IMG/VR virus record: IMGVR_UViG_3300022680_000058
Coordinates: 83,980-147,979 of that record
DNA from: a virus
Reading direction: 5' to 3' (one strand)
Length of the DNA stretch: 64,000 bases
Part shown: positions 4,004-37,102 of the stretch, piece after piece
How positions within the stretch are numbered: the first letter of the stretch is position 1
Layout of the letters: each line of letters starts with the position of its first letter
The notes under the pieces: generated by a model
The model's database searches: none
Seen by the model: the letters and a program-made list of their open reading frames with translations, nothing else
Told to the model about the DNA's origin: nothing
Translations under genes and position numbers: made by a program

Positions 4004-4019
4004 AGGCAATCAATTGCCC
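4004..4019. repeat. Dispersed 16-bp palindrome copy 1
   Basis: AGGCAATCAATTGCCC (1 mismatch). Confidence 0.8.
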
Positions 4020-18621: not shown

Positions 18622-18650
18622 ATCATGGTGTCATGGTATCCGACTGTCAA
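18622..18650 (-). promoter_or_regulatory. Sigma70-like promoter (ncRNA class)
   Basis: TTGACA-17-CATGAT; shares TTGACAGTCG...CATGATAGGTG with 29276-29304. Confidence 0.7.
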
Positions 18651-19861: not shown

Positions 19862-20117
19862 ACGACCTCTACTACGCCTTCAATCCCTGGGAGCTGTAGT
19901 TGCCCTGGTAATGGGAGCACACCCACACCAGTCTTCACAATCGCTCTCTCCAAGCGACACTTCTGTTGCGATGGACACGCCCTGACATGGGCTTCAAAGT
20001 TTCTTTGGGAAAGGTTGTGGTCAGCAAAAATCTCTCGACCACATATGAGGCACGACCGTGTTAGGCGCCCAAGCATTCTATGAATCTAGTATGACAATCT
20101 CACACTGTCAACCCGAG

Positions 20118-20561
20118 TCACAATACAGCATCGAACCGCTTCTGTGCCGCCGGTCGGATGTCTTTCTTCGGCGTCGGCTTCCACCGCCCGAGGTCCATCT
20201 TGTTGACGCTCTTCTTGGCAGCCTTCTTCGCTCCCCTTCGACCGAGGACGACAGTCACCATGAGACCTTTGACGTTCCCATTCTTGAGCCAGTCCAACGG
20301 TCTGAAGTAGAGGATCTCATCAGAGAACTCCAAGGCATAGTACCAATCCTGGCCACTCCACGATGACAATGGTCCAGGCATCGACGATGAGCTTGCAGGC
20401 TTTGACTTCGACTTCTCCTTCTTGCCCATCACCTGGCCAGGAGACGGGACTGTATAGCCCCCGATCATCGCCTCAGCCATCGTCTCGGACTCACCATCCA
20501 AGAGATTCCCGATCCCCTCCAGCAACACGCCATTCACTGAACGAACATCCATCTCCATCAC
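20118..20561 (-). CDS. Leader-family protein (putative internal head protein)
   Basis: MDVRSVNGVLLEGIGNLLDGESETMAE leader then YTVPSP; basic body. Confidence 0.7.
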   Translation of the reverse strand: MMEMDVRSVNGVLLEGIGNLLDGESETMAEAMIGGYTVPSPGQVMGKKEKSKSKPASSSSMPGPLSSWSGQDWYYALEFSDEILYFRPLDWLKNGNVKGLMVTVVLGRRGAKKAAKKSVNKMDLGRWKPTPKKDIRPAAQKRFDAVL

Positions 20562-20899
20562 CTCAAAATCTTTCCGAGCCGAACCCTACTCCTCGTAGCT
20601 CCCTCAATGTACCTAACCACATCAGGGAGTGTGTCGAGGTGTCGGCTTCGACGCCCAGTCTTCACTTGCGTCGCGACCCAGAACCGCTTCGTGGCATTCG
20701 CCGTGTCGCCCTTCTTGAGCTCGACAAACCACCTGTTGTCGCTGTCCCTGTAGACAGCCCCTCCATTGTGCCGATGGAGAACAATCTCATCTGTCCTAAT
20801 AGGCTCGACGTACAACTCCTGGAGCACCTCAAGATCACCACCTTGAAGGCCAACGATCGCCTCGCCGAGCACAAGATTCACAGCATTGATATCCATCAA
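20558..20899 (-). CDS. Leader-family protein (putative internal head protein)
   Basis: MDINAVNLVLGEAIVGLQGGDLEVLQE leader. Confidence 0.7.
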   Translation of the reverse strand: MMDINAVNLVLGEAIVGLQGGDLEVLQELYVEPIRTDEIVLHRHNGGAVYRDSDNRWFVELKKGDTANATKRFWVATQVKTGRRSRHLDTLPDVVRYIEGATRSRVRLGKILR

Positions 20900-20910
20900 G
20901 CGCCTCTTTC

Positions 20911-21420
20911 TCAGAGCTGCTCAGCAAGGATGTGAAGCTGTGGGAGGTCACCATCTACACCAAGCGTTCCAGTGATCACCTGGAACTGGATCGATGTCAC
21001 CTCGTTGAGGACCGTGTTCCTCCCGAAGGCCTTATAGGTCCCGCTCGACGACTCTCGATAGTAGAGGTTGATATCCGAATTCGCGATTGGAGTGTTTGAA
21101 CCACCACCAACATGGCCAACGAGCGCCCCGATCTCCCCGAGGGTCCCATCGATCCGAACCGGGGTCGAGAAGTTGGCCATCTCCCACTGGATAGTCCCTG
21201 AGCTCCCACTGACGACCGTGATCGAGTTGTTCGCCTCACTGACTGTCGCGTCAGTGGAGGACTCGACGTTTTCAGCCGTGAGGCTCACTCTTTCAAGCTT
21301 CGGAAGCGCCGAGATTCGAGTCTTCAGCGCAGACTTGAAAGTGGTATCGAGGTTCGAGTATGCATCGACAGCATCCGACAGGATCTGCTGAAACATTGAA
21401 AACGTCGTTTGGATTGCCAT
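20911..21420 (-). CDS. Putative virion structural protein
   Basis: Ser/Thr/Gly-rich, beta-rich composition; AAAGGTG RBS. Confidence 0.5.
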   Translation of the reverse strand: MAIQTTFSMFQQILSDAVDAYSNLDTTFKSALKTRISALPKLERVSLTAENVESSTDATVSEANNSITVVSGSSGTIQWEMANFSTPVRIDGTLGEIGALVGHVGGGSNTPIANSDINLYYRESSSGTYKAFGRNTVLNEVTSIQFQVITGTLGVDGDLPQLHILAEQL

Positions 21421-21425
21421 GCTGA

Positions 21426-21884
21426 TCACCTTTCTATTGAGACAGGTCTCGTCTTGTCCGCCCCAGAAGGCATCGACGGCTTCTGCTCTGGTTTGAGTAT
21501 AACACCTGTCTTGGCGCCAAACTTTTTGTTCCACGCCGCGAGAGTCATCGCCCGCCTATACTCATCACCTGGAGCGCCCGTGATCCTCTTCGGTCCGTCT
21601 GACTTCACCCGCTTGAACTGTACCGGGTAGACCGTCCCGAGCGCCACCTCAATGACCGTGTTCTCGTCTTTCAACGACTCAGCGGCGAGCTCTGTCATTG
21701 TGAAGATATCTCGATGGAGAGCATCCTGTCGCCAGTTCCGCTTTGCCGTCCCGTACCCAATGAGAACAGGCGCCTCTTCCATGCGGAAAATCCACACAGT
21801 GAGCTCAGACCCCTTACGCCACCTCACAATGACCTCTCCAGGCGCCATCAAAGCTTCGGATAGCCTCTGAGACAAGGAGAGCAT
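21426..21884 (-). CDS. Hypothetical protein with LSQRLSEAL N-terminal motif
   Basis: In leader-family operon; N-terminus matches LSxxLxEAL motif. Confidence 0.65.
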   Translation of the reverse strand: MLSLSQRLSEALMAPGEVIVRWRKGSELTVWIFRMEEAPVLIGYGTAKRNWRQDALHRDIFTMTELAAESLKDENTVIEVALGTVYPVQFKRVKSDGPKRITGAPGDEYRRAMTLAAWNKKFGAKTGVILKPEQKPSMPSGADKTRPVSIER

Positions 21885-22910
21885 CTACGCCGCCAGGAGC
21901 CCTTTCAGGGACGCTCTGAGGGCTTCGAACATCTTGAGCTGTCGCTTGTCGACCTTCTTCTTTGGGACAGCGACACCCGCCGGAACATGTGGGAACTCTC
22001 CTCTCTGAAGATACTTTTCCATCATGTCAATCCACATCGAGACAGGCCCGAACGCTGGCGACACATAGGCGTTGTACCTATTCATATCGAACTCTCTTCT
22101 GACGACAGCCAACAAATCCTGAAGATCATCACGATCATCACTCTGCATATCCGGCTTCATCACCCGAATGACTGTAGCAAGAGAAGGTTCGTAGTCCTTT
22201 CGCTGCAAGGGAGAGTAACTTCTGTCGCTCGACCCCTTCGCTTCACTCCAAAGCAGCCCCTTCAACAGGGCGATGAACGTGAAAACTCTGGCGTCTGGGA
22301 TCTGAGGTCCGGTATTCGGTGACTTCGGTGCTCTCGGAGGAGGACCAACGATCCGGTCATAGACCGTCGGAGCGCCGCTCTTTCGAGATGCTCTCTTTTT
22401 CGGCTCCTTTACCGTCGCCTTCTTCCCAGGACCGCCGCCCTTCTGCTTCGACACAGCCGCTCTAGCAGCATCGATGAGGTCTCGGATCTTTCTCGCCGCC
22501 AGGACATCACCAAACGTGATATCCGTTCTCTGCCTTGCCTGATCAAGACGCTTCGCGTGAGCCCTTGCCACCTTGAGCCACTCTCTCAACCTGGAAAGGA
22601 CTTCTTTCCTGTACTTCGGAAGCATCTGCTCAGTCTGCTTTGGAAGCTTCTGAAGGAGCTCCCTAACGACACTCGCCTCTGGGGTTCGATTCGGGTCGGT
22701 GAGCTTCCCATGACCAGCAACAAGAGGCTCCAGAGCACTCTCGATGGGGTCCATGACCTCATCATCCGTCGCCCCGACAGCCATCCCATACTTCCGGTGC
22801 ATTTGCATCGGAGAGAGAACTTTGAACCTCTCTGTCAGAGCTTCGATCTCCTCGATCTGAAAAGCCGCGATCGACTGTTCGAGAACCAAATTGACCATCC
22901 TGATGTCCAT
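21885..22910 (-). CDS. Leader-family protein (putative internal head protein)
   Basis: MDIRMVNLVLEQSIAAFQIEEIEALTE-RFKVLSPMQMHRK; GGAGG RBS; ends LLAA. Confidence 0.75.
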   Translation of the reverse strand: MDIRMVNLVLEQSIAAFQIEEIEALTERFKVLSPMQMHRKYGMAVGATDDEVMDPIESALEPLVAGHGKLTDPNRTPEASVVRELLQKLPKQTEQMLPKYRKEVLSRLREWLKVARAHAKRLDQARQRTDITFGDVLAARKIRDLIDAARAAVSKQKGGGPGKKATVKEPKKRASRKSGAPTVYDRIVGPPPRAPKSPNTGPQIPDARVFTFIALLKGLLWSEAKGSSDRSYSPLQRKDYEPSLATVIRVMKPDMQSDDRDDLQDLLAVVRREFDMNRYNAYVSPAFGPVSMWIDMMEKYLQRGEFPHVPAGVAVPKKKVDKRQLKMFEALRASLKGLLAA

Positions 22911-22945
22911 CCTACACCTGCCCTCCGAAAACCAACGTACCACAA

Positions 22946-24898
22946 TCATCGATGGGCAGGACGCCCCACCGACATCTTCCCTGGGTCCCTGACAAATCCT
23001 GTGTCCCAATCTTGAGCCCCTGGATGGAGCGGAATCCCCTTCAATGAGTCACCATCATCAGACACCAATGACCCATCGAGTAGCTGTCTCGCCTTCCACA
23101 TGGGAATGATCTTGATGGATTTCACAGAAATTTCTTTCTTATGCCACAAGACTTCTTCCGGATACGCCCTGTCTGGGAATTCACTCGTTGTGAACAAGAC
23201 TGCCACGTCACGCTTCTTGGCCCTTCCCAGCGGAGAATTCTGAACCGAGGGAACATACACCCCTCCAACAGCTACGGCATAGACCGCTGGCGCCGCATAT
23301 TCGGACTGCCAGACCTTCTTCTTGTCCACCATCCCGAGTGCACCCTTCGAGTCAGTGAAGTGGATATACTGAAGCTTCGACGCTCTCATACGACCAGTCT
23401 TCGCCTCTCGCTCCGAGAGCAACGCTTCAACGAGCTGCGACGACAAGCCTGGTTTCTCTACACCTTCAAGCTTGATCGTCGGGAAAAGAAGCTTGAGCAT
23501 CCCCTTGATTTCTGGAAGCAACGTCCTCGGACCAAACCCCACAAGGTTACCCAAGACCTCACAGAACGCTTCCTCCTCATTTGTCGCTGCATACCCACTG
23601 ATCGGAAGTGCTGCCACAGAGATCCAAGGCGTACCACCGGCATTCAAATACTCTCGAATCGCCGTGATATTTCCCAGCTCATCAACACGCCTTGGATACC
23701 TGTAACGAAGTGTCCGAAGTCTAAGGTATGTGACAGGGTCCTCTTTTTCGAGCCGCTTCTCGAACTCTGAGTCTGTCTCGCCGATCTTCACTCTTCCAAC
23801 GAGCTCTTTCAGATCGAGGTCAACCTTCTTTCTCAAGAACTCCCGCCACCTCATTTTCATCTTCTGAGAGAAAAATGTATTGTAGATGTGGTGTCCCATC
23901 TCATGGGCGAGATACTGAGCAGTCTGATCCGCGCTCTTATCCATCCCCCAAAAAGTCACAAGGACATGATCCCCCTCATACGTCGCTGCATAAAATCTTC
24001 CAGCCTCATCAGATGACGAAAAGTCCAACTTGAATGGGATTTTGTATCTCAAAAGCCACGGGAACACCCTTTGAGCTCTCTTTTTGTAAAGAGCAAGACC
24101 ACGCTCGAACCTTCCCATAAGTTCCCTCTTGTGAGAGTCATTATGGTCATACCCAACGAGCTGCAACGAGAACCCGTCCTTACTGATATTCTGCGGCGCT
24201 TTCTCCTCAGGATGCTTGATCGGGAGCACCTCCCCACCGCCACCGTAGAGACTCGTGCTCTCAGTCCATTCAATAAACTCCTTCAGCCACTTCCATGCCG
24301 CCCGAGAACGCCTCTCAGCCTGTCCCTGCCACTTCTTCCTTCCCCTCTGGAAATCGTAATACTGCCCACTTTTTTCCGGCGTCACGCTTGTCCCACGGTA
24401 CTTGTGCTGAGCCAGCTCCAACCTTTCGAGTGGAAATGTGTTAAGTACGAAATTGAAATCCCACAGCGGCTTTTGGTCATCACGATAGTGACGCCCCCAC
24501 AGCTCATTCGTTTTTCGCTTCCACACTTCAAGCCGAGCCTCGCTCCTCATCATCTGATCAATCATCGGCTTGATCTGTTTGATAATGCTGAGATAGTGAT
24601 CCCTCCAACGATTCACCCCCTCGCTGACCTTCAAAGCGTCATCATAATTCTTGATGTTCCTGTAGCTCCTCATGATGGTGAGAAACTCTTTTCGGAGACG
24701 CTTGACCACGAACTCAGTCAACCCTCCGCTATGACCAGCAACTTTTGACGCGAGCCCCGCTGGAGAAAGGACATGGTAAGTCTTCCCAGCATAACCAGTC
24801 AGTGCCGCCTCGATGAGCGATTCGAGTTCACCATGCTGTAAAACATCTATGGCCTCAATGAGCTCAAAGTTTCTTTGCCTGAGTTCCTCGATAACCAT
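22946..24898 (-). CDS. Leader-family multidomain protein: zincin metallopeptidase + ADP-ribosyltransferase-like domain
   Basis: HEMGH...SGYAATNEEEAFCE; C-terminal YIHFT...AVYAV...YPEEVLW. Confidence 0.7.
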   Translation of the reverse strand: MVIEELRQRNFELIEAIDVLQHGELESLIEAALTGYAGKTYHVLSPAGLASKVAGHSGGLTEFVVKRLRKEFLTIMRSYRNIKNYDDALKVSEGVNRWRDHYLSIIKQIKPMIDQMMRSEARLEVWKRKTNELWGRHYRDDQKPLWDFNFVLNTFPLERLELAQHKYRGTSVTPEKSGQYYDFQRGRKKWQGQAERRSRAAWKWLKEFIEWTESTSLYGGGGEVLPIKHPEEKAPQNISKDGFSLQLVGYDHNDSHKRELMGRFERGLALYKKRAQRVFPWLLRYKIPFKLDFSSSDEAGRFYAATYEGDHVLVTFWGMDKSADQTAQYLAHEMGHHIYNTFFSQKMKMRWREFLRKKVDLDLKELVGRVKIGETDSEFEKRLEKEDPVTYLRLRTLRYRYPRRVDELGNITAIREYLNAGGTPWISVAALPISGYAATNEEEAFCEVLGNLVGFGPRTLLPEIKGMLKLLFPTIKLEGVEKPGLSSQLVEALLSEREAKTGRMRASKLQYIHFTDSKGALGMVDKKKVWQSEYAAPAVYAVAVGGVYVPSVQNSPLGRAKKRDVAVLFTTSEFPDRAYPEEVLWHKKEISVKSIKIIPMWKARQLLDGSLVSDDGDSLKGIPLHPGAQDWDTGFVRDPGKMSVGRPAHR

Positions 24899-24899
24899 C

Positions 24900-26339
24900 C
24901 TACGCCTCCCTCAACGCACCAATGAGCTGATCAGACAGCGACTCCAATCGCCGCTTCTTCCCCATAAACTGCTCGAACCGCTGCCTCTGCTCACGATTGA
25001 GCTTGATCCTACTGAACTGCTGCCCCACATACCCGCTAAAGAGCTCTGCGAACTCCTCTGCATCATCAGTTCCACCGTATTTCGACGGGAACTTCACCTT
25101 CCCAAACCACTCCTTGAATCGACCACGATCATCATGGCTCATGAACTTGAACCAATACCTATGGCCCAATTCATGAATAATAATGTCGGCATCCGTATCA
25201 TTGCTGTAGATGTCCACGCCATCAAGAACACGAGAATACGCCGCTGCTGCCTTTATGGACGTTTTGAAAACAGCCTCATACGATCCAGGCGGAAGCTTGA
25301 TGAAATCCCCATACCACAGACGCGATAGACCTCGACGCCTCAAAAGCGCCTCAACCTTCCTGAGTTCAGAAACAAGCTTGTTCCTGTGTGTCGGTGACAT
25401 CCCCTTGGTGCTTGCCAGGAAAGCACGATCGAATCTCTTCGCCTCACCACCAGAGACCCTCATCTGACTTGTCATCTTCTCTTTGCGAGGGTCCTGAGCA
25501 ATATCCTTGAACACCAGGTTCACACGACCAATATGGACAACATCCTCAACGGGGACGCCAGGGCGGGTCCCATGCTCTGATGGAGCATATCTCCCACCAG
25601 TATCACCCTTAGCTTTCACGAGCCTTGAAAGCGACCTCAGGAGCCGCCCAGAGATAGCCTTCGTAGCCTCCTCAACCCCTTCATCGGCCTTCGCAGGGAT
25701 ACTCCTCAACATCCTGGCATATTCATCCACAGACCTGAACGTGTTGTAGAACACCGGCTCCCCAGAGAATGAAAACTGCCCCTCAGGATGAGACTCGTTC
25801 TTGTAGAACGTGATCGCCCCGATCGCGTCCTTGATCGCCTCCTCAGCCTTCTCGATCTCCTCCACAGTCTTCTTCACTGGCCCAAACTTCTCTTTTCGGT
25901 CCTCGTCCGCTTCCTTCTCAATTTTGACGAGCATGTCATGCATCTTTGGGTCTTCAGACTTCAGCTTTTTCTTGTAAGCTGGAGTCATCCCCGAGACCTT
26001 TCGGAAAGCCTCACGGCTCCAGAGACCCTTCGTCCAATACAGATCCGTCTTGAGCTGCTCGATGGCATTCTTGACCGAGGTCAGATACTCGATAGCATCG
26101 TCGGCAGCCTTGGCGTACTCATCCCATGTCCCGACCTCCTTGACATCCTTTGGCGGTCTCCCTGGGTAATCCTTGACCTTGTCGGCGATACCCTTCCACC
26201 ACTTCCGAATCCCAGAGATCCACTCATCGTCAATCTCATGTCTCTTCCTTGGATTTACCCTGCGATGCATTTGTTGTGGGGTAGGGACCTTGTACGAGCC
26301 CGCCATCGCCGCTTCGAGCAAAACATCGGAAAGTCTCAT
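24900..26339 (-). CDS. Leader-family protein with C-terminal zincin (HExxH) metallopeptidase
   Basis: MRLSDVLLEAAMAGSYKVPTPQQMHRR; IIHELGHRYW...SKYGGTDDAEEFAELF. Confidence 0.75.
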   Translation of the reverse strand: MRLSDVLLEAAMAGSYKVPTPQQMHRRVNPRKRHEIDDEWISGIRKWWKGIADKVKDYPGRPPKDVKEVGTWDEYAKAADDAIEYLTSVKNAIEQLKTDLYWTKGLWSREAFRKVSGMTPAYKKKLKSEDPKMHDMLVKIEKEADEDRKEKFGPVKKTVEEIEKAEEAIKDAIGAITFYKNESHPEGQFSFSGEPVFYNTFRSVDEYARMLRSIPAKADEGVEEATKAISGRLLRSLSRLVKAKGDTGGRYAPSEHGTRPGVPVEDVVHIGRVNLVFKDIAQDPRKEKMTSQMRVSGGEAKRFDRAFLASTKGMSPTHRNKLVSELRKVEALLRRRGLSRLWYGDFIKLPPGSYEAVFKTSIKAAAAYSRVLDGVDIYSNDTDADIIIHELGHRYWFKFMSHDDRGRFKEWFGKVKFPSKYGGTDDAEEFAELFSGYVGQQFSRIKLNREQRQRFEQFMGKKRRLESLSDQLIGALREA

Positions 26340-26421
26340 CGAGCACACCTCGCCCATCCTCCCGAGTATACACCGCCACTCGGATAGAGCCTATCCGTCT
26401 GATTTGATTGGGTCTCAGAAT

Positions 26422-26437
26422 GGGCAATTGATTGCCC
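26422..26437. repeat. Dispersed 16-bp palindrome copy 2
   Basis: GGGCAATTGATTGCCC. Confidence 0.85.
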
Positions 26438-26499
26438 ACTCCAGAAAGAGAAAGGGCCACCATAGTCTCACCATGGCAGCCCTAACGTATTGAAAACAT

Positions 26500-26865
26500 T
26501 GGAGGCGGTCAGAGTCGAACTGACGTCCACACCCCCTCTGCTCGTGAGCTCTACGTGCGTATCTCCTGATCAATCTCGGCGTCATCGAGTTCAGGAGCAA
26601 ACTCTCTGAGCCAGTCGTGCGAGATGTCAGCCGCGCAGGTTACAGAATGAGTCACACACGAGACACTCACTCACTACGCGCCGCTAATGGCGCCCCTTGT
26701 TCCCATAGCAGCAGTCTGGGAGGGACGTGAGATTACGCCGCCAGGCTCATCTCAGGATAGCTGTCAGTGTTGGCAACTGGTTGTTCGTCCTGTTTGACGC
26801 ACAAGGACGATCCTCGGCACGCTCACACAAACGTCATGGGATCTGTCGAAACCTTTTTCGCCCCC
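26500..26865 (-). ncRNA. ssrA: tmRNA, tag peptide (A)ANTDSYPEMSLAA*
   Basis: 5' GGGGGCGAAAAAGGTTTCGAC; 3' GTCAGTTCGACTCTGACCGCCTCCA; acceptor with G3:U70; tag ORF 26774..26733; 366 nt. Confidence 0.95.
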
Positions 26866-26890
26866 TCAAGTCAAAGTGTCTTTGGTGAGC

Positions 26891-27739
26891 TCAGCCACCT
26901 TCTTCGATGTCCTCGATGATTCCGGCGAGACCCTTGATCGCCTTGGCCTCGGAATCTCCGATCGCCCAGAGCACACCCTTGATGAATCCGTCTCCGAGAA
27001 CTTTCGCTGTCTTCGGGTTCTCGATGACCTTCCGGGCGAGTGACTTCTTCGGGGCGAGCACGACAGGACTCTCCGTCGTACCCTTCTGCCCCTTCGCATC
27101 TCGAACCGTCGTTTTCCCCGTCTCCAGCATATTCTCCAGAGCAGCCTTCTGCTCTTCCGGAGAGAGGTCGGCGAGTTCCACAGCCGCACTCATCGAGATC
27201 TTCCCAGCCTCGACAGCGTTTTTGACCTCGGGAATGCAGTCCAAAACCTTCAGCCAGTTGGCGATGGCCGTAGCAGAGACACCGAAGATGACGCCGACCT
27301 CGGCGTTGTTCTTCCCCCTCTGCTTATACCGCTCGGCCTTTTCCGCCTTGGCGATCGGGTCATCATCGACGCGGTGCTCGTTCTCACTCAGAAAGATCCC
27401 CATGATGTGCTCATCACTTCCACGTTTGAGCATGGCAGGGACCTCGATGGGCTGCTCTCCCATCGACAAGAGCTTCTCATTCGCCTTTCTGGCTGCGACC
27501 ACACGACGTCGACCGGCGACCACGAGAGCCCTGTCCCCATCCTTCCGGATCGCGATGGGCTGGATGATACCGTTGACCATGATGTTCTTGACCATCTCCG
27601 GAGAAATCGGCTTCTTGAGCCGCTTCATGTCGTAGAGGTCATGCTCCGGACCATCGTCTGTATCGAGACCAATAATCACAAGGTCTTTTGGATCAAACGA
27701 GTACGCCGTCACCCGCTTCTCGAAGGCGTGCTTCCCCAT
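26891..27739 (-). CDS. ParB/Spo0J-like protein (ParB-N + HTH)
   Basis: GIIQPIAI...VVAGRRRV...SENEHR...AEVGVIFGVSATAIANWL. Confidence 0.85.
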   Translation of the reverse strand: MGKHAFEKRVTAYSFDPKDLVIIGLDTDDGPEHDLYDMKRLKKPISPEMVKNIMVNGIIQPIAIRKDGDRALVVAGRRRVVAARKANEKLLSMGEQPIEVPAMLKRGSDEHIMGIFLSENEHRVDDDPIAKAEKAERYKQRGKNNAEVGVIFGVSATAIANWLKVLDCIPEVKNAVEAGKISMSAAVELADLSPEEQKAALENMLETGKTTVRDAKGQKGTTESPVVLAPKKSLARKVIENPKTAKVLGDGFIKGVLWAIGDSEAKAIKGLAGIIEDIEEGG

Positions 27740-27762
27740 ATCTCCATCTCCGTCTTTCTTGC

Positions 27763-27918
27763 TCACCCTGGAACTCCAATCAGAGCTGCGAGGAAACCAA
27801 TGGTTCCTCCGATATACCAAGGGGCCATGATGACAGCGAGCAATATCGCACCAGCAACGATGTTCAACCCCTCGGCAATCATCCTGACCAGCGACTCAAC
27901 CATCTTTGCCCACGTCAT
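27763..27918 (-). CDS. 51-aa hydrophobic membrane peptide (below ORF-track cutoff)
   Basis: MTWAKMVESLVRMIAEGLNIVAGAILLAVIMAPWYIGGTIGFLAALIGVPG*; GGAG RBS. Confidence 0.55.
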   Translation of the reverse strand: MTWAKMVESLVRMIAEGLNIVAGAILLAVIMAPWYIGGTIGFLAALIGVPG

Positions 27919-27946
27919 GGACCATCTCCAGAATCAAATCAAGCAC

Positions 27947-28108
27947 TGTGTCGCGATGACAAAGTGTACACCACACCGCCGGGTAAGGCGGCGACAGGCG
28001 GACAAACCTGCTCCTCTGGGGTTTCAATCCAGCGTGCGTTCTGGGGTGGCAGCCCCAATGTCCGATCACTTGTCATCACGAGCGCCCCTCTGCCAAGGGA
28101 ACGACACA
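27947..28108 (-). ncRNA. Multibranch structured RNA A
   Basis: Ends pair (TGTGTCG/CGACACA; CGATGACAAAGTG/CACTTGTCATCACG) enclosing five short hairpins. Confidence 0.6.
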
Positions 28109-28113
28109 CAATG

Positions 28114-28236
28114 CGGTAGGGTAGGCTGGACTCGAACCAGCTAGTGACACGGAGACACTCTTTTTTGAGTATCAGAATGGCGACGAAATCAAAACGACCC
28201 ATTCCGACTAGCAACTTCCGTATCGCCACGCTCCCT
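28114..28236 (-). ncRNA. tRNA-like element 1 (non-canonical)
   Basis: T-arm GCTGG-TTCGAGT-CCAGC, imperfect acceptor AGGGAG/CTACCCT, 3' ACCG; oversized middle. Confidence 0.55.
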
Positions 28237-28255
28237 GTGAGCTCTCACCCCAAAA

Positions 28256-28398
28256 AGGAAGTCTAGCCTTTCTCCTCAACTAAAAGCACAACACTTCAAA
28301 GTGCTATGAATCGCCTAATTAGGGCGGTCTAGTCTCGATCCTGGCACACGTAGTCCAAAAGTCCCTTGCAGCAACAGGGCGGTACTGGGCTGACTTCC
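28256..28398 (-). ncRNA. Multibranch structured RNA B
   Basis: Closing stem GGAAGTCAGCC/GGCTAGACTTCC then U-run; internal hairpins. Confidence 0.55.
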
Positions 28399-28505
28399 TG
28401 GTGACGATGGCTGGACTCGAACCAGCGCCTCCCCTCGATACTTCCAGGGCTACCTTCCTCTACAAGGTTTCGGTCTCCTAATCCCTTGCAGGCGGGTCAT
28501 CGCTC
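28399..28505 (-). ncRNA. tRNA-like element 2 (non-canonical)
   Basis: Same 17-nt T-arm as element 1, acceptor (A)GCGATG/CATCGT(C), 3' ACCA; no standard anticodon arm. Confidence 0.6.
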
Positions 28506-28536
28506 AATATGGAGGTACCAATTCCACGAGCCCCGC

Positions 28537-29012
28537 TTAGTACACATCGTCAATTCGCGCTTGCTTTTCTTGACAACCAATCCGGACAAGGCGAGATGCT
28601 GGGCTTCCAGCATCGAACCTCGAAAAATTGTCCCTGGCGATTCGCCAGACGCCAAGCGCCACCTCACTCTCAAGTCTGTCCGGCCAGATTCCTCCACCTG
28701 GCTCCAGTTTCAGTCCGCACAATGCGGAAACCGTCGCACCATCGAGCTCAACCACCACCCGACAGCACAGACCTTTCTAGGCCCACTCCAACCAGGGCAC
28801 CACACGCCCTCGGACAGCTTCAGTGGAAAGTCGAGGACCCGCCCCTCGATGAGACCTGACGCGCCCATTACAACGTCCGTCTCTTCCCAGCCGGGAGACA
28901 GAGACCAAAGAAAAGTCCCGAGGCCATGCCAGATGGTTTTTCTTTCATAACACCTGGGCGACCAGTCTCCCTTATCGAGTTCTTCCGCATTGATCGAGGG
29001 TGGTCGACTCAA
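28537..29012 (-). pseudogene. Probable frameshifted ORF
   Basis: ORFs 28710..29012 and 28537..28758 join if one G is added at GTCGGGTGGTG (~28760). Confidence 0.35.
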
Positions 29013-29087
29013 ACCTCACACGGCGACTGCACCGTATGGGTGGCGCCCATGATTGACACGCCTCGCCTCCACGAATGCTTAGAACCC

Positions 29088-29175
29088 GGTGGGAAGCCGG
29101 GGAATCGAACCCCAAGGCCCAGTGAAAACGACGTGAAGCAACCCGTGTAAGCTTCTATCATTTATGCCGCTTCCC
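29088..29175 (-). ncRNA. tRNA-like element 3 (non-canonical)
   Basis: Perfect 7-bp acceptor GGGAAGC/GCTTCCC, discriminator A + CC(G), T-arm TGGGG-TTCGATT-CCCCG; D/anticodon arms do not form. Confidence 0.65.
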
Positions 29176-29176
29176 A

Positions 29177-29270
29177 TGGCGCGAACAAAACAAGAGTACA
29201 TGGACTCTTTATCGGAACTCTGCCCTGACCGACATGAAAGGAGAGCATTCACTCTCATCTGTCCGCGTCC
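29177..29270 (-). ncRNA. Cloverleaf-like structured RNA C ending in CCA
   Basis: CGCGGACAGA/TTTGTTCGCG closing stem, three internal hairpins; starts at predicted TSS. Confidence 0.55.
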
Positions 29271-29275
29271 CACCT

Positions 29276-29304
29276 ATCATGATGCTGTGAACAGCGACTG
29301 TCAA
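29276..29304 (-). promoter_or_regulatory. Sigma70-like promoter driving ncRNA island
   Basis: TTGACA-17-CATGAT. Confidence 0.7.
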
Positions 29305-30221
29305 GAATCTTTTTTCACCTCGCCAGTACTTTCTTCCTCGTATCTCTCCAAAGCCCTCTTCGCCTCACCTATGGCGAGCTCACAAGCATTCAATGGAACC
29401 AAAAGCTTCTTGACCGCTTGGCCCTCCACACTCTTGATCCACTCCCTGACCTGGTCGACAGTGACAGGCGCCTCCCCATGCCTGAGGATAGAACTCGCCT
29501 CAGCCCCCATGGAAACCCACTTACCCGAAGCCATGGCGAGGACTTCAAGAGGCTGTTCGAGTTCACGACGCCTCTTCTTGAGCACCTTCCTCTCATCCTC
29601 CATCCTCAAGCGAGCTCTCTCTAAATCCTGCCGCTCCCTCTTCACGAGCCTCTCGACCATCACGTCGATCTGTTCAGGCCGAAGCCAGAGACCCTCGAAG
29701 AAGTAGTGCCGATGCTTCACCTGATCCAACTGGACCGCCAGAGCTCGAATCGTAGAGAGTGCCAACTCCTCAGGGAGCGGCTCGATCTTGCGATGCTTCG
29801 CAACCTTCACCTCTCGAATCTTCGAGCCGTTCTTCGTCGCGACCATGAGCCCCCAACCCTCTGGGACCTCATCAGGCTTCACGAGCCCACTGGGAACCGC
29901 GAAGTAGCACTTGTGGAAGTTTTCCTCGACCCACTTCCGCTTGAGAGGGTTCTCCATCTCCTTCCGGAAGTCCGCCCGAGACCTTTTGACTTCGTAGGCA
30001 ACCCGAGTAAACCCCTTGCTGGGCCAGCAGTTGAAAGCCGCGACATCGATCCGCCCTTCGCGACCGTCACCGTATCCCACCCCGGCACGAAGCTCTGTCA
30101 CCACGACCCACTCTGTTCGGTTCGTGTGACGAGCCCTCAGGAGTTCCTCAATGTTGATTTGTGACTTCTCTCTCTTAGGCTCGAAACCGAACCTAGAAAG
30201 AACCTTTGGGGAGTCCACCAC
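29301..30221 (-). CDS. MmcB-like PD-(D/E)xK nuclease-domain protein with coiled coil
   Basis: RIDVAA...AYEVKRSRADF...YFAVP.GLV..EVPEGWGL. Confidence 0.75.
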   Translation of the reverse strand: MVDSPKVLSRFGFEPKREKSQINIEELLRARHTNRTEWVVVTELRAGVGYGDGREGRIDVAAFNCWPSKGFTRVAYEVKRSRADFRKEMENPLKRKWVEENFHKCYFAVPSGLVKPDEVPEGWGLMVATKNGSKIREVKVAKHRKIEPLPEELALSTIRALAVQLDQVKHRHYFFEGLWLRPEQIDVMVERLVKRERQDLERARLRMEDERKVLKKRRRELEQPLEVLAMASGKWVSMGAEASSILRHGEAPVTVDQVREWIKSVEGQAVKKLLVPLNACELAIGEAKRALERYEEESTGEVKKDS

Positions 30222-30520
30222 TACTCCATGGAGGAGGATTCGGGCGGCTCTGGTTCATCACCACTGACGGCGCTCTTGATCTGCTCTTTGGTGTAAACGA
30301 GCGGCGCCTCCTTCTCGACTCGCCTGACGGTCATCCTGAGGAGCTTCATCCTGTCGCCGATTTCCTTGTCGAGGCTGGCCCTCTTCAACTCCAGCTCTTC
30401 GATCTCTTCAGCGAGCGCAGCCGACGAGGAAAACACCCCAGCGGACCACGCCGTCTCAGGCAAATCTGCGACCCATTCGATCTTCTCCACGAGCTCTTTT
30501 GCTGTGACCTTTTTCGGCAT
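30221..30520 (-). CDS. Hypothetical coiled-coil protein
   Basis: Start MPKKVTAK with AGGAG RBS. Confidence 0.6.
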   Translation of the reverse strand: MPKKVTAKELVEKIEWVADLPETAWSAGVFSSSAALAEEIEELELKRASLDKEIGDRMKLLRMTVRRVEKEAPLVYTKEQIKSAVSGDEPEPPESSSME

Positions 30521-30611
30521 ACTGCTTCTCCTTTGGCTACTACTACAGCAGAGCCACACTATACCACAAAGATGCTCTGTGCCATAATATCGAAAAGGTT
30601 GGAGGCACAGG

Positions 30612-30929
30612 ATGGGAGCAGGAGCAGTGAGAAGCTTGAGAGTAGTCGAAGATCCCCACGAGGATTTGCAGGAACTCCTGGAGGCCATGGTCACCAGGCT
30701 CGTCGATAGACCTGATGACATCGTCATCAAAACCATGAAAGCAGCGGACGGATCATCAATCACGTTCGAGGTATTCTGCGACGAAGACGACGTTGGCGCC
30801 GTTCTCGGGTCAAGGGGACGTCACGCCGAGGCGATGAGAACACTCCTCACCGCCGCCGCCGCAGCGATGAGGACACGCGTCTACGTCCAGTTCCTGTCGA
30901 GGGACCACGATGGCATGCCGCCCAGATAG
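30612..30929 (+). CDS. khpA: KhpA-like KH-domain RNA-binding protein
   Basis: ELLEAMVTRLVDRPDDI...DDVGAVLGSRGRHAEAMRTLL. Confidence 0.85.
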   Translation: MGAGAVRSLRVVEDPHEDLQELLEAMVTRLVDRPDDIVIKTMKAADGSSITFEVFCDEDDVGAVLGSRGRHAEAMRTLLTAAAAAMRTRVYVQFLSRDHDGMPPR

Positions 30930-31008
30930 TTTCACACCGAACCCGGTATTCTCATTCGGATTCCCTGGTATCCTCGGGGTCCTTCCATCAACTCAGGAGG
31001 TAAAGGCT

Positions 31009-31650
31009 GTGTTCCCAGCACTCAGCTCAACAGTCATACCCCACGCCCAGGAAATCAAATTCCGACGTGGCGACAGCTTCGACATCGATATCCAAATCCA
31101 GGATGACAGAGACCCTCCAAGCGAAGTCGACGCCTCGAACTCTGTCCTTCGGTTCGGCGCCAAACCAGGATATGGACAATACAACGTTTCCACCCCAAGC
31201 CTGGTCTATGGGAATGATGGGCTTCAAATCTACAAACGATCATACGATGAACTGGAAATCGAACAGGTAAACCCATCAAATGGTCAATTCAAGATTCACA
31301 TCAAGAAGTCAGACACTGTAGAGCACCCTGCGATTCCAATGGTATGGGACCTTGAGCTCACGATACCAACTTCACAACTCTCTGCACCTGGAACAGTCAT
31401 CGTACAAAACGGAGACCCGATCATCCAAGGCATTGGAACCAACTTTGGTGACGATGGCCTCACCGCTGGCGACATCATTGTCATCGAAGGCAGAAGGATC
31501 ATGATCGACACAGTTCACAGTGAAACGTCCATCGAGACAGACTTCACCGGATGGTCTGGAGGGACTGGCCTATCATACGAGCTCTATGTCAGCCAATCTC
31601 GTGTAATTGCCAGTGGTCATTGGACATGTCTCGCTGACGTCGTCATCTAG
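31009..31650 (+). CDS. BppU-like baseplate/tail domain protein
   Basis: I.FRRGDSF....I...VDASNS.L...GQF.I.I...DT...WDLEL; AGGAGG RBS before GTG. Confidence 0.6.
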   Translation: MFPALSSTVIPHAQEIKFRRGDSFDIDIQIQDDRDPPSEVDASNSVLRFGAKPGYGQYNVSTPSLVYGNDGLQIYKRSYDELEIEQVNPSNGQFKIHIKKSDTVEHPAIPMVWDLELTIPTSQLSAPGTVIVQNGDPIIQGIGTNFGDDGLTAGDIIVIEGRRIMIDTVHSETSIETDFTGWSGGTGLSYELYVSQSRVIASGHWTCLADVVI

Positions 31651-31696
31651 CCCCTCCTTGACAACTCGTATTAGTATATACATACTCTCCACCAGT

Positions 31697-31972
31697 ATGG
31701 CTATAAGAGTTCAAAAAGGCGTTGAGGTGCCCAAGCGGTGCCGTGGGTGCGGAAAACCAATCCAAGAGGACGACCGCCGCACCGTCAGAATAACAGTCGG
31801 GCAGCTCCACTCCCTCGAAAAGAAAAAAGAACGATTCGAGGAGGAGCCATCGGACATGTGGGGCTATATGCATGAAATCTGCTTCGGGCTCGCCATCCGC
31901 GACCCTGACGCCATTCGCAAACAAGCGTCGAAATTCAAATCTGCCGACGCCACCGCATCCCCACTCGAATAG
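31697..31972 (+). CDS. Small zinc-binding protein
   Basis: CRGCGKPI...HEIC. Confidence 0.55.
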   Translation: MAIRVQKGVEVPKRCRGCGKPIQEDDRRTVRITVGQLHSLEKKKERFEEEPSDMWGYMHEICFGLAIRDPDAIRKQASKFKSADATASPLE

Positions 31973-32031
31973 TCCTATCTCCACCCCACAACCCCTGGCT
32001 CTCTTTTTTACAAATTTCTACGCCCTGATTA

Positions 32032-32059
32032 TTGACAAACTGAAATCAGGCTATAATAT
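32032..32059 (+). promoter_or_regulatory. Conserved-spacer early-type promoter
   Basis: TTGACAAACTGAAATCA...TAATAT; family with 33266, 37055, 58591, 60114, 60252, 62278. Confidence 0.7.
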
Positions 32060-32083
32060 TAGTGGTGAAAGAGAGGAGTTCTC

Positions 32084-32362
32084 ATGAAAGTTTTCGCCAC
32101 CATCATCACCGGCACCACCTGGGCAATCTACAATCTCCACACCGGAGAACTCCTCGAAAAAAGCGGGGACCGCCGGAAAGAAGTCACTTACAAGGTCGAC
32201 TTCGACTTCGATTGGCCATGGTCGGCTGATCGCAAGTACCAAGACTCGATCCACCAAGTCAGCAACGAAGAGCGGGCCAAGCGCTTTCAGGAGCGTTGGC
32301 CAAACGAATTCGAGGACCCGAACGCCTACACCCCACCGGCTCCCTCGGCCCTCGGTTTCTAA
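32084..32362 (+). CDS. Hypothetical early protein
   Basis: GAGGAG RBS, directly behind promoter. Confidence 0.65.
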   Translation: MKVFATIITGTTWAIYNLHTGELLEKSGDRRKEVTYKVDFDFDWPWSADRKYQDSIHQVSNEERAKRFQERWPNEFEDPNAYTPPAPSALGF

Positions 32363-32373
32363 AGGAGGACACC

Positions 32374-32916
32374 ATGGCCACTAACACCAGCAATGGAAGA
32401 TTCGTCAACATCCCAGCAGAAGACATCAAACGGTGTCTCAACGACATCTGTGAAAAGGTCTCCGAAGCTGGCGGTGTGTGCTCCGAAGGCACCTCTGGGA
32501 AAGAGGTCACCTTCGACATTCAACCCCCCGGCGTGAAAACCTTCGTGAGAGTCTTCACCTCCCTCGGGAGAGGGAGCTCTTCAGTCCGTGGTTGCGGTGA
32601 GGACGCCGTGAGACTCATCGTCGGGTTCATGGGCAAGGACAGACGAGACAGAGACAGGTTCTTCACTGTCAGAAAAAAGACGGTCTACAGGACCGCCCCA
32701 CAGAACGATGACGAATCAGTCCGCGTCGAAGCATTCCTCGAACGCTTCAAAGAGGCGATCAGGGGTGGGTACAAAATCGCCAAACTACACCCCCATTGTC
32801 CTGATTGCGGCGCCCCCATGGCGATCAGAGAAAACAGGGCAACGAAGCACGAATTCCTGGGCTGCTCTAAGTACCCACAATGCAAGAAAACCATCCCACT
32901 CCCCAAAGAGTCATGA
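32374..32916 (+). CDS. Protein with C-terminal topoisomerase-I-type C4 zinc ribbon
   Basis: CPDCGAPMAIR...FLGCSKYPQC. Confidence 0.75.
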   Translation: MATNTSNGRFVNIPAEDIKRCLNDICEKVSEAGGVCSEGTSGKEVTFDIQPPGVKTFVRVFTSLGRGSSSVRGCGEDAVRLIVGFMGKDRRDRDRFFTVRKKTVYRTAPQNDDESVRVEAFLERFKEAIRGGYKIAKLHPHCPDCGAPMAIRENRATKHEFLGCSKYPQCKKTIPLPKES

Positions 32917-33269
32917 GCTACTACGAACGCACAATCCGCGAAATCAATCGACGGCAATGGATCGACCTCGCTTTCGAACTCATCGAAGAGATGATGGACG
33001 AAGGCGAGGACCCTGATTGCAGGCTCCTGAAAGCCGCAGAGAACGTCCATGGATTCATGGAAGGTATGAAACCAGTCAAAGCTCTCAGAACCGCTGGGAA
33101 GCTCGCCCTGGACTATCAAGGATGCCTCCCTCCATCAACAGACTGGCTCAGTTCAAAAGAAATGAGGGCACACTATAGACGTAATGACGCCGCCCAAGTC
33201 ATCAGGTACGCTACAGCCAAGATTCCGCCCTCGAAGAAACTTTTACAAAAAACTCTCCACTCCCGTTGA
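32913..33269 (+). CDS. Hypothetical protein
   Basis: ATGA-coupled to previous gene. Confidence 0.6.
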   Translation: MSYYERTIREINRRQWIDLAFELIEEMMDEGEDPDCRLLKAAENVHGFMEGMKPVKALRTAGKLALDYQGCLPPSTDWLSSKEMRAHYRRNDAAQVIRYATAKIPPSKKLLQKTLHSR

Positions 33270-33308
33270 CAAACGCAAACCAGTGCATATGATGTAAGTG
33301 AACTGGCA

Positions 33309-35417
33309 ATGACATCCAGCGGTGATCCTCTCGGAATTCCGAGAGAAGAAAGGTTTTTTGATATGGCACTCGGAAAAGCAATCGCAACCATGGCGACCGC
33401 AGTCGCAATCTCCACCCAGGACGCTGAAAAAAAGCTCCTCGGTGGCCTCAACCCCGAACAGAAAGAGATCGTTCTCCACGACAAAGGTCCGATCCTCGCC
33501 GCCGCCGTCGCTGGGTCGGGTAAGACCCACACCTTGGTCAACCGGGTCGGCTACCTCACCGCAGTCCGTGGCGTAAATCCTCGCCGCGTTCTCGCCGTCA
33601 CCTTCTCGCGAAAGGGTGCCGAAGAAATGAACGAGCGGCTCGTCTCGCTCATCGGAGACACCGGAGCCAGAGTCGGCACCTTCCACTCCCTCGCTCTCCA
33701 GATTCTCCGAGAAGAAGGACGCATCAAAGACTGGACGATCGATGATCGGGATCGCTACCGCTACTGTGTCAAGGATGCTGTCAGTTGGCAGGGTATGAAG
33801 TGGACCAGAGCTGACCTCACACTTCTTGTCCAATACATCTCGCTTTGCAAGTGCGCTCTCGCCCGTCCCATGACCGCCGAAGCCGAAGCTATCGCCCAAG
33901 ATATCCGGGCGAAAAACCCGCGCCCCTCGACCGTCGTCGAAAAGATGATGGAAGCCTACGATCGAGCAGAAGAAGTCCGAAAAGAGCGTATGATTATCAC
34001 CTTCGATGACATGCTCTTCGACGCCTGTGAACTCCTCTCCAATGACGAAGGTCTCAGGGTCCGCTGGGCTTCAAAATGGGATTACGTCCTTCAGGATGAG
34101 GCCCAAGACCAAAACCTCGGGCAGCTCCTCCTTGGAGAGCTCCTCGCCAAGGACCATCGGAACTACATGCTCGTTGGCGACCCCGCACAGACCATCTACA
34201 CTTGGCGCGGCGCCCGCCCGGAAAAACTCCTCGGGTTCGAGGAAAAGTGGGACGCAAAGAAGGTCATCATGTCGCGGAACTACCGCTGTGGCCAAGAAAT
34301 CATCGGAGTCGCCAACAAGGTGCTCGAATCGATGGACCCAGCGACTCGCCTCGACACTCAAATGATTTGTGAACTCGGAACCACTGCTCAAGTCACCTGC
34401 CGACAGTTCGAGGATCTCGACGAAGAGGCAGAAAGCATCGGTGTCCAGATCAAAGAGGCACTCGAATCCGGTGTGAAGGCCCGAGACATCGGAATCCTCT
34501 ACCGGACCAACGCCCAGAGTCGAGGTCCAGAAGAGGCACTCATTGGTCTCGGAATCCCATACAGGATCATCGGCGGGGTGAACTTCTACGAGCGGAAAGA
34601 AGTCAAGGATCTCCTCGCATACCTCAGGCTCGCCGAAGGCCGTGGGTCGCTTGACGACGTCGCCCGGTGCATCAATGCCCCGTTCCGCTACCTCGGGAAA
34701 GCCTTCGTCGGCAGGGTCCGAGAAGCCACCAAAAAGGCCCGCGTCGCCGCTCGCAAGAACAACGGGCGGATCAGCTACCCAGCACTCATCAAGAAAGTCG
34801 CCCAGCAAGAAGGAATCCAAGCCCGCCAGCGATACTCAGTCCAAGACTGGGCTGACATGATCGAACTCTGTCACTCGAAGATCCAGGCAGGAGAAAAGCC
34901 CGCCAGAATCCTCGAACAGATCATCCTCGATACCCAATATATCGGCTGGCTCACCCGCGACCAAGGCGAGGAGAGCACGGAGAACTCGCGGGTCTCGAAC
35001 GTCCGTGAGATGGTTCGAGCCGCCGAACGATTCCCGACAACCAAAGGACTCCTCGACTACATCGACAAGACTCTCAAGGCCAGCAAAGACCAAAAGAGCA
35101 AAAACAAGAACCCGAACAAAGTTACTTTGACGACGATCCACCGCTCGAAGGGTGGAGAGTTCCCCGTTGTGTTCTCCATCGGCGTCAACGAGGGGATTCT
35201 TCCCCACGCCCGAGCTGAGGAACCCGAAGAAGAGCGACGCCTCTTCTATGTCGCCGTCACCAGGGCAATGAATGAGCTCCACATCTCCTGTGTGAGACAA
35301 GCTGCCATCGGTAACAGAGTCCTCGCTCTCTCCCCCTCACCATTCATCAAGGATGCCGGTCTCGTCATCGAGAGCGACCCCCAAGACATCGCCTTCGGTG
35401 ACCCCAGAGACGTCTAG
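33309..35417 (+). CDS. UvrD/PcrA/Rep superfamily 1 helicase
   Basis: LNPEQ, AVAGSGKT, VTFSRK, TFHS, DEAQD, VGDPAQTIYTWRGA, NYR, LYRTNAQ, TIHRSKG.EF, EERRLFYVAVTRA. Confidence 0.95.
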   Translation: MTSSGDPLGIPREERFFDMALGKAIATMATAVAISTQDAEKKLLGGLNPEQKEIVLHDKGPILAAAVAGSGKTHTLVNRVGYLTAVRGVNPRRVLAVTFSRKGAEEMNERLVSLIGDTGARVGTFHSLALQILREEGRIKDWTIDDRDRYRYCVKDAVSWQGMKWTRADLTLLVQYISLCKCALARPMTAEAEAIAQDIRAKNPRPSTVVEKMMEAYDRAEEVRKERMIITFDDMLFDACELLSNDEGLRVRWASKWDYVLQDEAQDQNLGQLLLGELLAKDHRNYMLVGDPAQTIYTWRGARPEKLLGFEEKWDAKKVIMSRNYRCGQEIIGVANKVLESMDPATRLDTQMICELGTTAQVTCRQFEDLDEEAESIGVQIKEALESGVKARDIGILYRTNAQSRGPEEALIGLGIPYRIIGGVNFYERKEVKDLLAYLRLAEGRGSLDDVARCINAPFRYLGKAFVGRVREATKKARVAARKNNGRISYPALIKKVAQQEGIQARQRYSVQDWADMIELCHSKIQAGEKPARILEQIILDTQYIGWLTRDQGEESTENSRVSNVREMVRAAERFPTTKGLLDYIDKTLKASKDQKSKNKNPNKVTLTTIHRSKGGEFPVVFSIGVNEGILPHARAEEPEEERRLFYVAVTRAMNELHISCVRQAAIGNRVLALSPSPFIKDAGLVIESDPQDIAFGDPRDV

Positions 35418-35528
35418 TCTGTGAGTCCGCCCCTCCCGGCGGTTGCGACATAGGGGGGGCGGGGAGCTCCGGTTCCTCGCCCCCAAACTTTCCCATGTGG
35501 TATGGTTGAAACAGAGAAGAGGGACACC

Positions 35529-36170
35529 ATGGATATCCAAGAAGTCAACGCAATCTTGAACCAGGCGATCGAAGGTCTTCAGTTCGCCGAGATCGAAGCC
35601 CTGGCAGAGTTCACCATTCCATCGCCCGCAGAAATGCACAGACGCTCCGGAATGCCCCTTCCCAAGCCCGAGGTCCCGACACCGGCAGAGATGCACAAGC
35701 GCTCTGGAATGCCCCTCCCTGGCAGCGTCAGAGTGACCAAAGGGAGTCAGCATCCAAAGACAGCTTACCAGTCCGTAGCGTCATCCAAGAAAACGAAGCC
35801 GACCCACTTCTACAATCCACAAGGCAACCTCATGGACCCCGACAAGGGGAGTCGAGCCAACGTCAAGAAAGCTGAAGAGCTCGCCCAGGTCATCCAAGCC
35901 GCCACAGATGAGGTCTACAAAGATTTCGGCATCGAGGGATACTCTCGAAGCAAGAGCGGTGGACTCGTCACCGTGAATCCCAAGAAGAAGTTCATCGCAA
36001 TCGATATCGGGAGCTCAGGAAAGCTCCTCGTTGGTCCGAACAACTTCGTATGGGGCATCAAGGGCTACGGAGTCCGCCACCCTCAGAAGTTCTATGGAAC
36101 TGTCGACGAAATGATCCGGAATGGATTCTCGATCACCATCGGCGGGACGCCCTACATCATCAAGGCCTAA
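35529..36170 (+). CDS. Leader-family protein (putative internal head protein)
   Basis: MDIQEVNAILNQAIEGLQFAEIEALAE then two copies of (I/V)P(S/T)PAEMH(R/K)RSGMPLP. Confidence 0.75.
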   Translation: MDIQEVNAILNQAIEGLQFAEIEALAEFTIPSPAEMHRRSGMPLPKPEVPTPAEMHKRSGMPLPGSVRVTKGSQHPKTAYQSVASSKKTKPTHFYNPQGNLMDPDKGSRANVKKAEELAQVIQAATDEVYKDFGIEGYSRSKSGGLVTVNPKKKFIAIDIGSSGKLLVGPNNFVWGIKGYGVRHPQKFYGTVDEMIRNGFSITIGGTPYIIKA

Positions 36171-36386: not shown

Positions 36387-36902
36387 TCAAAAAGGCCATG
36401 TAGTTGGATCGAAAAACTCGACAGTGAGCTCAGCACTTCTGGCCCTTTTGATACAATCCCAAGTACCACCCTTCTCTACCTCATCCCAGACGGACAAAAG
36501 AACCCCTCCAGGGGTCTCCGACGCCCAGTCAACCATGTCCTGGTTCCTCTGGGTCATGCACCACGGCCCAGGCCACGGAGCATCACAAGTATACCTCTCC
36601 TCCCGAGCATGAGACAAAAGACGCCTGTGAAGGTCTCTGGACTCTGCTGGCCACCTCTTGTCCTGGTCATGACACGGAAGAAAAGCAATGAAGGGGACAT
36701 GGTTGTGATAGCACCTCGCCGCGAAAAACTGATCCACGCCAAGCGCCATCCCGGTTCCAGCAATCAAGTCGCCCTGTTTCTGGTAGTGCTTCAGGCGCTC
36801 CTCCATCCAATCTCGAATCGCAATGTTCCGTTCGTCGTCCCAGTCATATCCTCCCGGTAACCGGGTCGGCCTGTGACCTGTCACAATGACTCTTAAATCC
36901 AT
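36387..36902 (-). CDS. SLOG-superfamily YspA/DUF1273-like protein
   Basis: VIVTGHRP, GMALGVDQ, RNQDMVD, GGTWDC. Confidence 0.85.
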   Translation of the reverse strand: MDLRVIVTGHRPTRLPGGYDWDDERNIAIRDWMEERLKHYQKQGDLIAGTGMALGVDQFFAARCYHNHVPFIAFLPCHDQDKRWPAESRDLHRRLLSHAREERYTCDAPWPGPWCMTQRNQDMVDWASETPGGVLLSVWDEVEKGGTWDCIKRARSAELTVEFFDPTTWPF

Positions 36903-37102
36903 GAAATCTATAGTAACCACATAGCATCCACTTGCCATATGAAAAACCAATCCTATACTATTATTCAAATCTAGTGGTTCGAGGTATTGGCCCCCTGGCG
37001 CCATCCAGGCGGGCCATCTTTGTGAACAAAGTCTCTTTTACTCTTGACAGGCTATTGACAAACCTAAATCAGTCCACACCTTGCTTGTGGAGGTCAAGAG
37101 AT

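Follow-up and report, generated by a model that had tools for sequence, protein, structure and literature searches.

The window analysed here, a 64,000-nucleotide stretch of viral DNA, forms the final 64 kb of a single 147,979-base virus record (IMGVR_UViG_3300022680_000058), and it carries a set of genes whose products begin with a shared acidic leader and continue into basic, mostly unrelated bodies. We consider it likely that these leaders are capsid targeting sequences (CTS) of the type found in the internal-protein system of phage T4, in a longer and expanded variant; core binding, cleavage, packaging and ejection are the steps that we infer. In the window, the tagged proteins, referred to below as cargo, are encoded by six minus-strand genes (20118-26339) and a single plus-strand gene at 35529. 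An earlier note on this DNA had counted five such genes in one operon and one on the other strand, an arrangement that holds except that a sixth operon gene (21426-21884) had been overlooked.

Translation confirmed the six N-termini on which that note was built, at window positions 22910 (-), 20896 (-), 20552 (-), 35529 (+), 24898 (-) and 26339 (-). Leaders at 22910 (-), 20896 (-), 20552 (-) and 35529 (+) are canonical and 27 residues long, the one at 24898 (-) is a degenerate long form (E 0.04, profile positions 10-28), and that at 26339 (-) is a short form of 9 residues. Two forms can thus be distinguished, a long leader of ~27 residues with the consensus M-D-I-E-R-V-N-x-V-L-x-K-A-I-x-G-L-Q-E-x-E-I-E-x-L/M-x-E, and a short leader of 9-15 residues with the core L-S-x-x-L-x-E. 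The whole genome has ~10 long and ~6 short leaders, nearly all ending in L/M/I-x-Glu. The alignment among them is significant: a hidden Markov model (HMM) of the leader recovers 9 clear copies in the 148-kb genome (E 2e-15 to 3e-8), all at the starts of open reading frames (ORFs). An independent HMM, made only from seven leaders of a different phage (L006), ranks the four canonical window leaders at the top of 1,218 six-frame window segments (E 2.7e-6, 2.7e-5, 0.01 and 0.22), with matches that begin at their start codons.

The contrast between an acidic leader and a basic body, also claimed in the earlier note, is borne out. Long leaders have a net charge of -4 to -7 and the mature bodies an isoelectric point (pI) of 9.5-10.6, in a genome where the median pI is 6.1 and 14% of the proteins exceed 9.5. 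The leader is predicted to be helical and lacks hydrophobic signal-peptide character. Most pairs of bodies are unrelated by BLASTP, although the 650-residue cargo L and the 479-residue cargo M proved to be distant paralogs by hhalign (probability 96.3%, E 1.9e-9, 315 columns). With the exception of the paralog pairs L/M and G/H, the leader is all that these diverse, basic proteins have in common.

When the leader profile was searched against 1.84 billion protein cluster representatives, 115 representatives were found at E<=1e-3, and 47 of these at E<=1e-10. In 113/115 the match begins no later than residue 6, and Glu occupies position 27 in 90/114. Among the 90 with Glu27, position 25 is M (41), L (39), I (8) or V (2), and the residue after the Glu is Ala in 53. 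Six positions of the long leader are more than 90% conserved across the 115 clusters. Once the leader and the Pro motif region described below had been removed, 92 representative bodies fell into ~41 families, and Pfam gave no credible domain in any of the 115 leader-bearing representatives.

Leaders are exchanged between orthologous bodies. The body of the protein at genome position 46538 carries a long leader here and three different short leaders, each ending in hydrophobic-x-Glu, in L003, L022 and L024. Members of the L peptidase family bear the canonical long leader (P0105, P0117), the short leader (P0118) or other short peptides ending in L-T-E or L-L-E. Among related loci, L itself has no close relative, and the 8 distant relatives of P0117 all lack the long leader. 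The bodies themselves are domain mosaics: the N-terminal domain of cargo K is found with either of two C-terminal domains, depending on the phage, and P0001 consists of three cargo domains in tandem. In distant relatives, a single conserved acidic protein with a diverged long leader lies between the neck and tail genes (L016:17227-17583, L024:12001-12600, L020:14009-14611), and it may represent the ancestral source of the leader.

The head machinery of this virus is of the T4 type and is encoded outside the window; it comprises a terminase, portal (PHROG 213), two acidic proteins, prohead protease, capsid protein and head-tail adaptor. The protease matches Peptidase S77 of Pfam (genome 56398-56844, E 2e-18) and the head maturation protease of PHROG 207 (E 9e-49). 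Against the T4 gp21 structure 5jbl (E 8e-9), its G-E-L-D-H-P and S-S-R-G motifs are aligned, and seven relatives all retain H73 and S126/S127. The His and Ser are the catalytic pair of gp21. The capsid protein is of the gp23 type (PHROG 138, E 4e-61; T4 gp23 chains, E 2e-22), with two L/M-x-E sites in the region that is cleaved in gp23. Its relatives with 63-79% identity come from uncultured contigs only, while the nearest GenBank phages reach <=33%. Neither Megablast of the region nor tblastn of a 45-residue leader found a match among GenBank phages.

Directly behind this head module, outside the window, lies a second and larger array of tagged genes (genome 46.1-52.2 kb). In this genome, as in L006, L007 and L021, the leader genes come immediately after those for the capsid protein and adaptor; in each of the latter three, seven consecutive long-leader genes lie behind the adaptor gene. 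At the same place L003 and L005 have six short-leader genes.

Several genes of the head region have features of their own. The ORF of the prohead protease (genome 55255-56895, equivalent to L002:11255-12895, minus strand) continues into a conserved acidic tail of ~350 residues, probably a coiled coil, with a conserved L-x-E-E site near its C-terminus. The genome contains no separate gp22-like scaffold gene, and this tail may serve as the scaffold. The large terminase (genome 60995-64300, minus strand, 1101 amino acids, partly in L002) contains an insertion of ~400 residues (residues ~117-517) that is missing from L016 and L017 and resembles an intein or homing endonuclease. Interruptions are likewise seen in the portal genes of L012 and L017. 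Elsewhere, a 302-residue acidic protein (genome 3873-4781, minus strand, pI 4.9) begins with the short-leader core M-R-L-S-Q-R-L-D-E-A, so that the short leader may also mark a processed structural protein.

The T4 logic invoked in the earlier note is supported in its main lines by the S77 protease, the gp23-type capsid protein, the strictly N-terminal L/M/I-x-E leader, the basic and mostly unrelated bodies, and the exchange of leaders between orthologs. What that note called a new targeting peptide is new as a leader family, in its length and in the scale of its use; the principle had already been described for T-even phages (PMC3012670, PMC9026906).

A number of observations weigh against identifying these leaders as a CTS. 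At 27 residues, the long form exceeds any T4 CTS, and apart from the terminal hydrophobic-x-Glu we noticed nothing in it that resembles the T4 CTS, no tool comparison having been made. Glu is missing from position 27 in 24/114 representatives and, in this genome, from the long leader at 49768. A complete 192-kb relative has just one long leader, which is diverged, so that not every member of the lineage needs the long form. The genome lacks the T4 late promoter word TATAAATA, and late co-expression is therefore only suggested by a palindrome shared between cargo operons (see below). The phage is uncultured and its record ~77% complete (CheckV). Finally, the window operon sits among replication genes rather than head genes.

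This last point, together with the predicted helicity of the leader, would also fit an uncleaved functional module, such as an oligomerisation or partner-binding helix, shared by a fast-diverging family of early host-takeover proteins and unrelated to the capsid. We regard such a module as improbable. The leader is strictly N-terminal with a conserved boundary of L/M/I-x-E followed by Ala, it co-occurs with the S77 protease, short L-x-E peptides replace it on orthologous bodies, and leader genes are clustered directly behind head genes both here and in relatives.

A shade less probable again is the idea that the leader is mainly an inhibitory pro-peptide that keeps toxic cargo, such as zinc peptidases, silent until it is removed, or that it is an address to somewhere else, be it the membrane, secretion or a phage compartment. 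Two cargo proteins are indeed peptidase-like, and an acidic leader could mask a basic body. However, most cargo proteins are small and have no catalytic signature, and the same leader is found on ~40 unrelated bodies, which speaks for an address and against an inhibitor tailored to its protein. The absence of hydrophobic signal-peptide character also counts against this idea, which would in any case be compatible with capsid targeting as a second role, without replacing it.

That the conservation reflects a 5' nucleic-acid element (a translational operator or a recent gene conversion) is hardly credible even though all copies lie at gene starts, since third codon positions are the least conserved (identity of 0.58, 0.68 and 0.39 at positions 1, 2 and 3) and half of the identical residues (201/412 pairs) use different codons; the codon-position analysis ruled out an element at the nucleotide level. 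The same figures show that the leader copies are old and that selection acts on the peptide.

If the leaders are indeed capsid targeting sequences, the tagged protein would be made with an acidic, helix-forming N-terminal propeptide, long or short, that gives it affinity for the assembling prohead core. Once the shell has closed, the gp21-family serine protease would cut after the Glu of L/M/I-x-E, usually before Ala, and the acidic peptide would leave. The basic mature protein would then remain with the DNA and be delivered into the next host.

Directly after the predicted cut site, cargo proteins I, K, L, M and N have the motif [YF]-x-[VI]-[PL]-[ST]-P (the Pro motif) followed by a basic stretch. 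N has two copies of the motif and many database relatives have repeats of it, whereas J and the 152-residue protein of the operon have none. A more speculative scheme, which we think rather unlikely though worth stating, is a two-part addressing code. The exchangeable, cleavable leader would direct the protein to the prohead, and the retained Pro motif with its basic stretch would dock the trimmed protein on the DNA or portal for ordered ejection. In this scenario, any new gene could become an injected effector through a cassette of ~45 residues, and the head would be a general delivery device for at least 15 cargo species, including lethal-factor-like peptidases.

The cargo operon of the window reads M, L, K, a 152-residue gene, an acidic 170-residue gene, J and I, tightly packed behind a palindrome. 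Neither Pfam nor PHROGs assigned a family to any window cargo. Cargo M (24900..26339, minus strand, 479 amino acids) has a 9-residue leader ending in L-L-E, then Ala, the motif [YF]-x-V-P-[ST]-P and a zincin-like peptidase body (HELGH ... EEFAE). Its homolog P0130 (52% identity) has the same start position and the same kind of leader. Cargo L (22946..24898, minus strand, 650 amino acids) has a degenerate 30-residue leader ending in L-I-E, followed by Ala and the Pro motif. Cargo K (21885..22910, minus strand, 341 amino acids) combines a canonical 27-residue leader with the Pro motif F-K-V-L-S-P and a basic stretch. Its body is predicted to be all-helical, with two domains joined by a disordered basic linker. 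For K, scores in the ESM Atlas reached only ~0.81, and the AlphaFold2 (AF2) model matched only generic helical bundles (Z<9).

The gene overlooked earlier (21426..21884, minus strand) encodes an additional cargo candidate of 152 amino acids and pI 9.8, with a short leader that fits the core L-S-x-x-L-x-E-A. It is followed by an acidic ORF (20911..21423, minus strand, 170 amino acids, pI 4.5) with neither a leader nor a family match. Cargo J (20558..20896, minus strand, 112 amino acids) has a canonical 27-residue leader, no Pro motif, and a mature part of pI 10.6. Cargo I (20118..20552, minus strand, 144 amino acids), with homologs P0014 and P0020, has a 27-residue leader ending in M-A-E, then Ala, the Pro motif and a Lys/Ser-rich stretch. 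Outside the operon, cargo N (35529..36170, plus strand, 213 amino acids) lies downstream of a UvrD-type helicase gene, and its canonical 27-residue leader precedes the two Pro motif copies. N is adjoined by genes for an RCC1-repeat protein (36932-38431, plus strand) and a YpsA/SLOG-family protein (36387-37004, minus strand).

The earlier description of the cargo as swappable enzymes was an overstatement, because most of it looks like small basic proteins without an assignable function, as T4 internal proteins once did. A catalytic signature, the HExxH of zincins, is present in only two window cargo proteins, the paralogs L and M. In both families HExxH and a downstream Glu, the ligands expected of a zincin, are invariant; in L the invariant residues are H332, E333, H336, Y436, E443 and E447. 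Neither a sequence search of solved structures nor Pfam, including its ATLF/M34 model, gave a match for L or M (no family at E<=0.01 in the latter).

The AF2 model of L has a mean predicted local distance difference test score (pLDDT) of 67.5, with a well-modelled core at residues 60-478, and is divided into a helical bundle (58-223), a zincin peptidase (227-476) and a poorly modelled C-terminal domain. Residues 227-476 match the catalytic domain of anthrax lethal factor and two Pro-Pro endopeptidases with moderate scores (1yqy_A, Z 9.7; 9g0j_A, Z 9.5; 6fpc_A, Z 9.0; 146-163 residues aligned, root-mean-square deviation 3.8-4.5). Foldseek matches of the model to the PDB are weak (E 0.01-0.3), and those to BFVD include phage proteins named peptidase or M34 endopeptidase (E 2e-6 to 2e-4). 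L and M look like zinc peptidases of the lethal-factor/Pro-Pro-endopeptidase type. Between the peptidase and the extra C-terminal domain, at residues ~486-495, L contains an internal copy of the short-leader core, L-S-S-Q-L-V-E-A, and its paralog M terminates at the homologous motif. This internal core may be an internal processing site.

Both borders of the cargo operon are marked. Directly upstream lies a transfer-messenger RNA (tmRNA) gene (26497-26865, minus strand; Rfam RF00023, 118.8 bits), for which ARAGORN predicts the tag peptide ANTDSYPEMSLAA. A terminator-like hairpin of 14 pairs (26453..26483, minus strand) at the end of the tmRNA gene delimits the cargo unit on its upstream side. 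The operon is headed by the 16-base palindrome, whose 14-base core, GGCAATCAATTGCC, lies at 26423..26436. Just past cargo I, a sigma-70-like promoter (TTGACA, 17 bases, TAGATT; 20083..20111, minus strand) starts the next unit and marks the downstream border. Two genes downstream of the operon, and with its own sigma-70-like promoter, is a gene without a leader (18647-19861, minus strand) whose product combines a ParB-like nuclease domain and a DNA methyltransferase in one fusion protein (PHROG 359, 3264).

The palindrome is present in about 11 copies in the genome (9 matches to the word compared with 0.39 expected). Other sites include window positions 4005, 38479 and 47243 and genome position 53042, the last of which heads the adaptor/cargo operon beside the head genes, so that there is one copy at the head of each cargo operon. 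The palindrome often lies just upstream of a ribosome-binding site, and it also precedes other minus-strand gene starts. It could be a shared regulatory site, and nothing else points to co-regulation of the two cargo arrays.

If confirmed, these findings would mean that the capsid-targeting principle of T4 is no peculiarity of T-even phages, but a general and evolvable addressing system in distant T4-like lineages. This case offers a well-defined tag of 27 residues, a large cargo set and natural tag swapping. The ~115 clusters of candidate injected proteins, none of which has a Pfam family, are likely host-takeover or anti-defence factors, and with this leader, protein delivery by phages could gain a second candidate for a packaging tag.

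From the perspective of known packaged proteins, there is a precedent for the cargo type of L and M: in polyvalent proteins packaged into capsids, no domain is commoner than the zincin peptidases related to lethal factor (Iyer et al. 2017, PMC5512222). L and M share HExxH and the downstream Glu with these domains, and with lethal factor (MEROPS M34) and the Pro-Pro endopeptidases. Unlike polyvalent proteins, they stand alone with a CTS-like leader instead of being domains of a giant fusion.

In the giant phages phiKZ, 201phi2-1 and SPN3US, a gp21-related protease processes many inner head proteins, with propeptides that have an A/S/G-x-E motif, are in many cases longer than 100 residues, and are inferred to target proteins into the prohead (PMC5694885, PMC7411985). 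The present system resembles theirs in its gp21-related protease and in the proposed prohead targeting, and paralogs of the giant phages can likewise share N-termini. It differs in that position 25 is L, M or I and in that a compact module of 27 residues is placed on unrelated bodies.

The closest counterpart is T4 itself, in which propeptides of 10-19 residues direct a variety of internal proteins (IPI, IPII, IPIII, Alt) to the scaffolding core, gp21 being the protease that removes them (PMC9026906, PMC3012670, PMC5694885). For the CTS on internal proteins, these accounts go back to Mullaney and Black 1996, as cited in PMC9026906 and PMC3012670, and T-even phages carry varied basic proteins with only the CTS in common (PMC9026906, PMC3012670). 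Like T4, the system described here has an N-terminal propeptide ending in hydrophobic-x-Glu, a gp21-family protease, a gp23-type capsid protein, and diverse basic cargo with only the leader in common, encoded at loci that vary between related phages. The short leader (9-15 residues) also fits the T4 length range (PMC9026906). Unlike T4, which has a handful of tagged proteins, this genome encodes ~16. Leaders of two classes occur side by side and replace one another on the same bodies, the cut site is followed by a second motif, the retained Pro motif, and in place of a separate gp22-like scaffold gene the protease ORF carries its 350-residue acidic tail.

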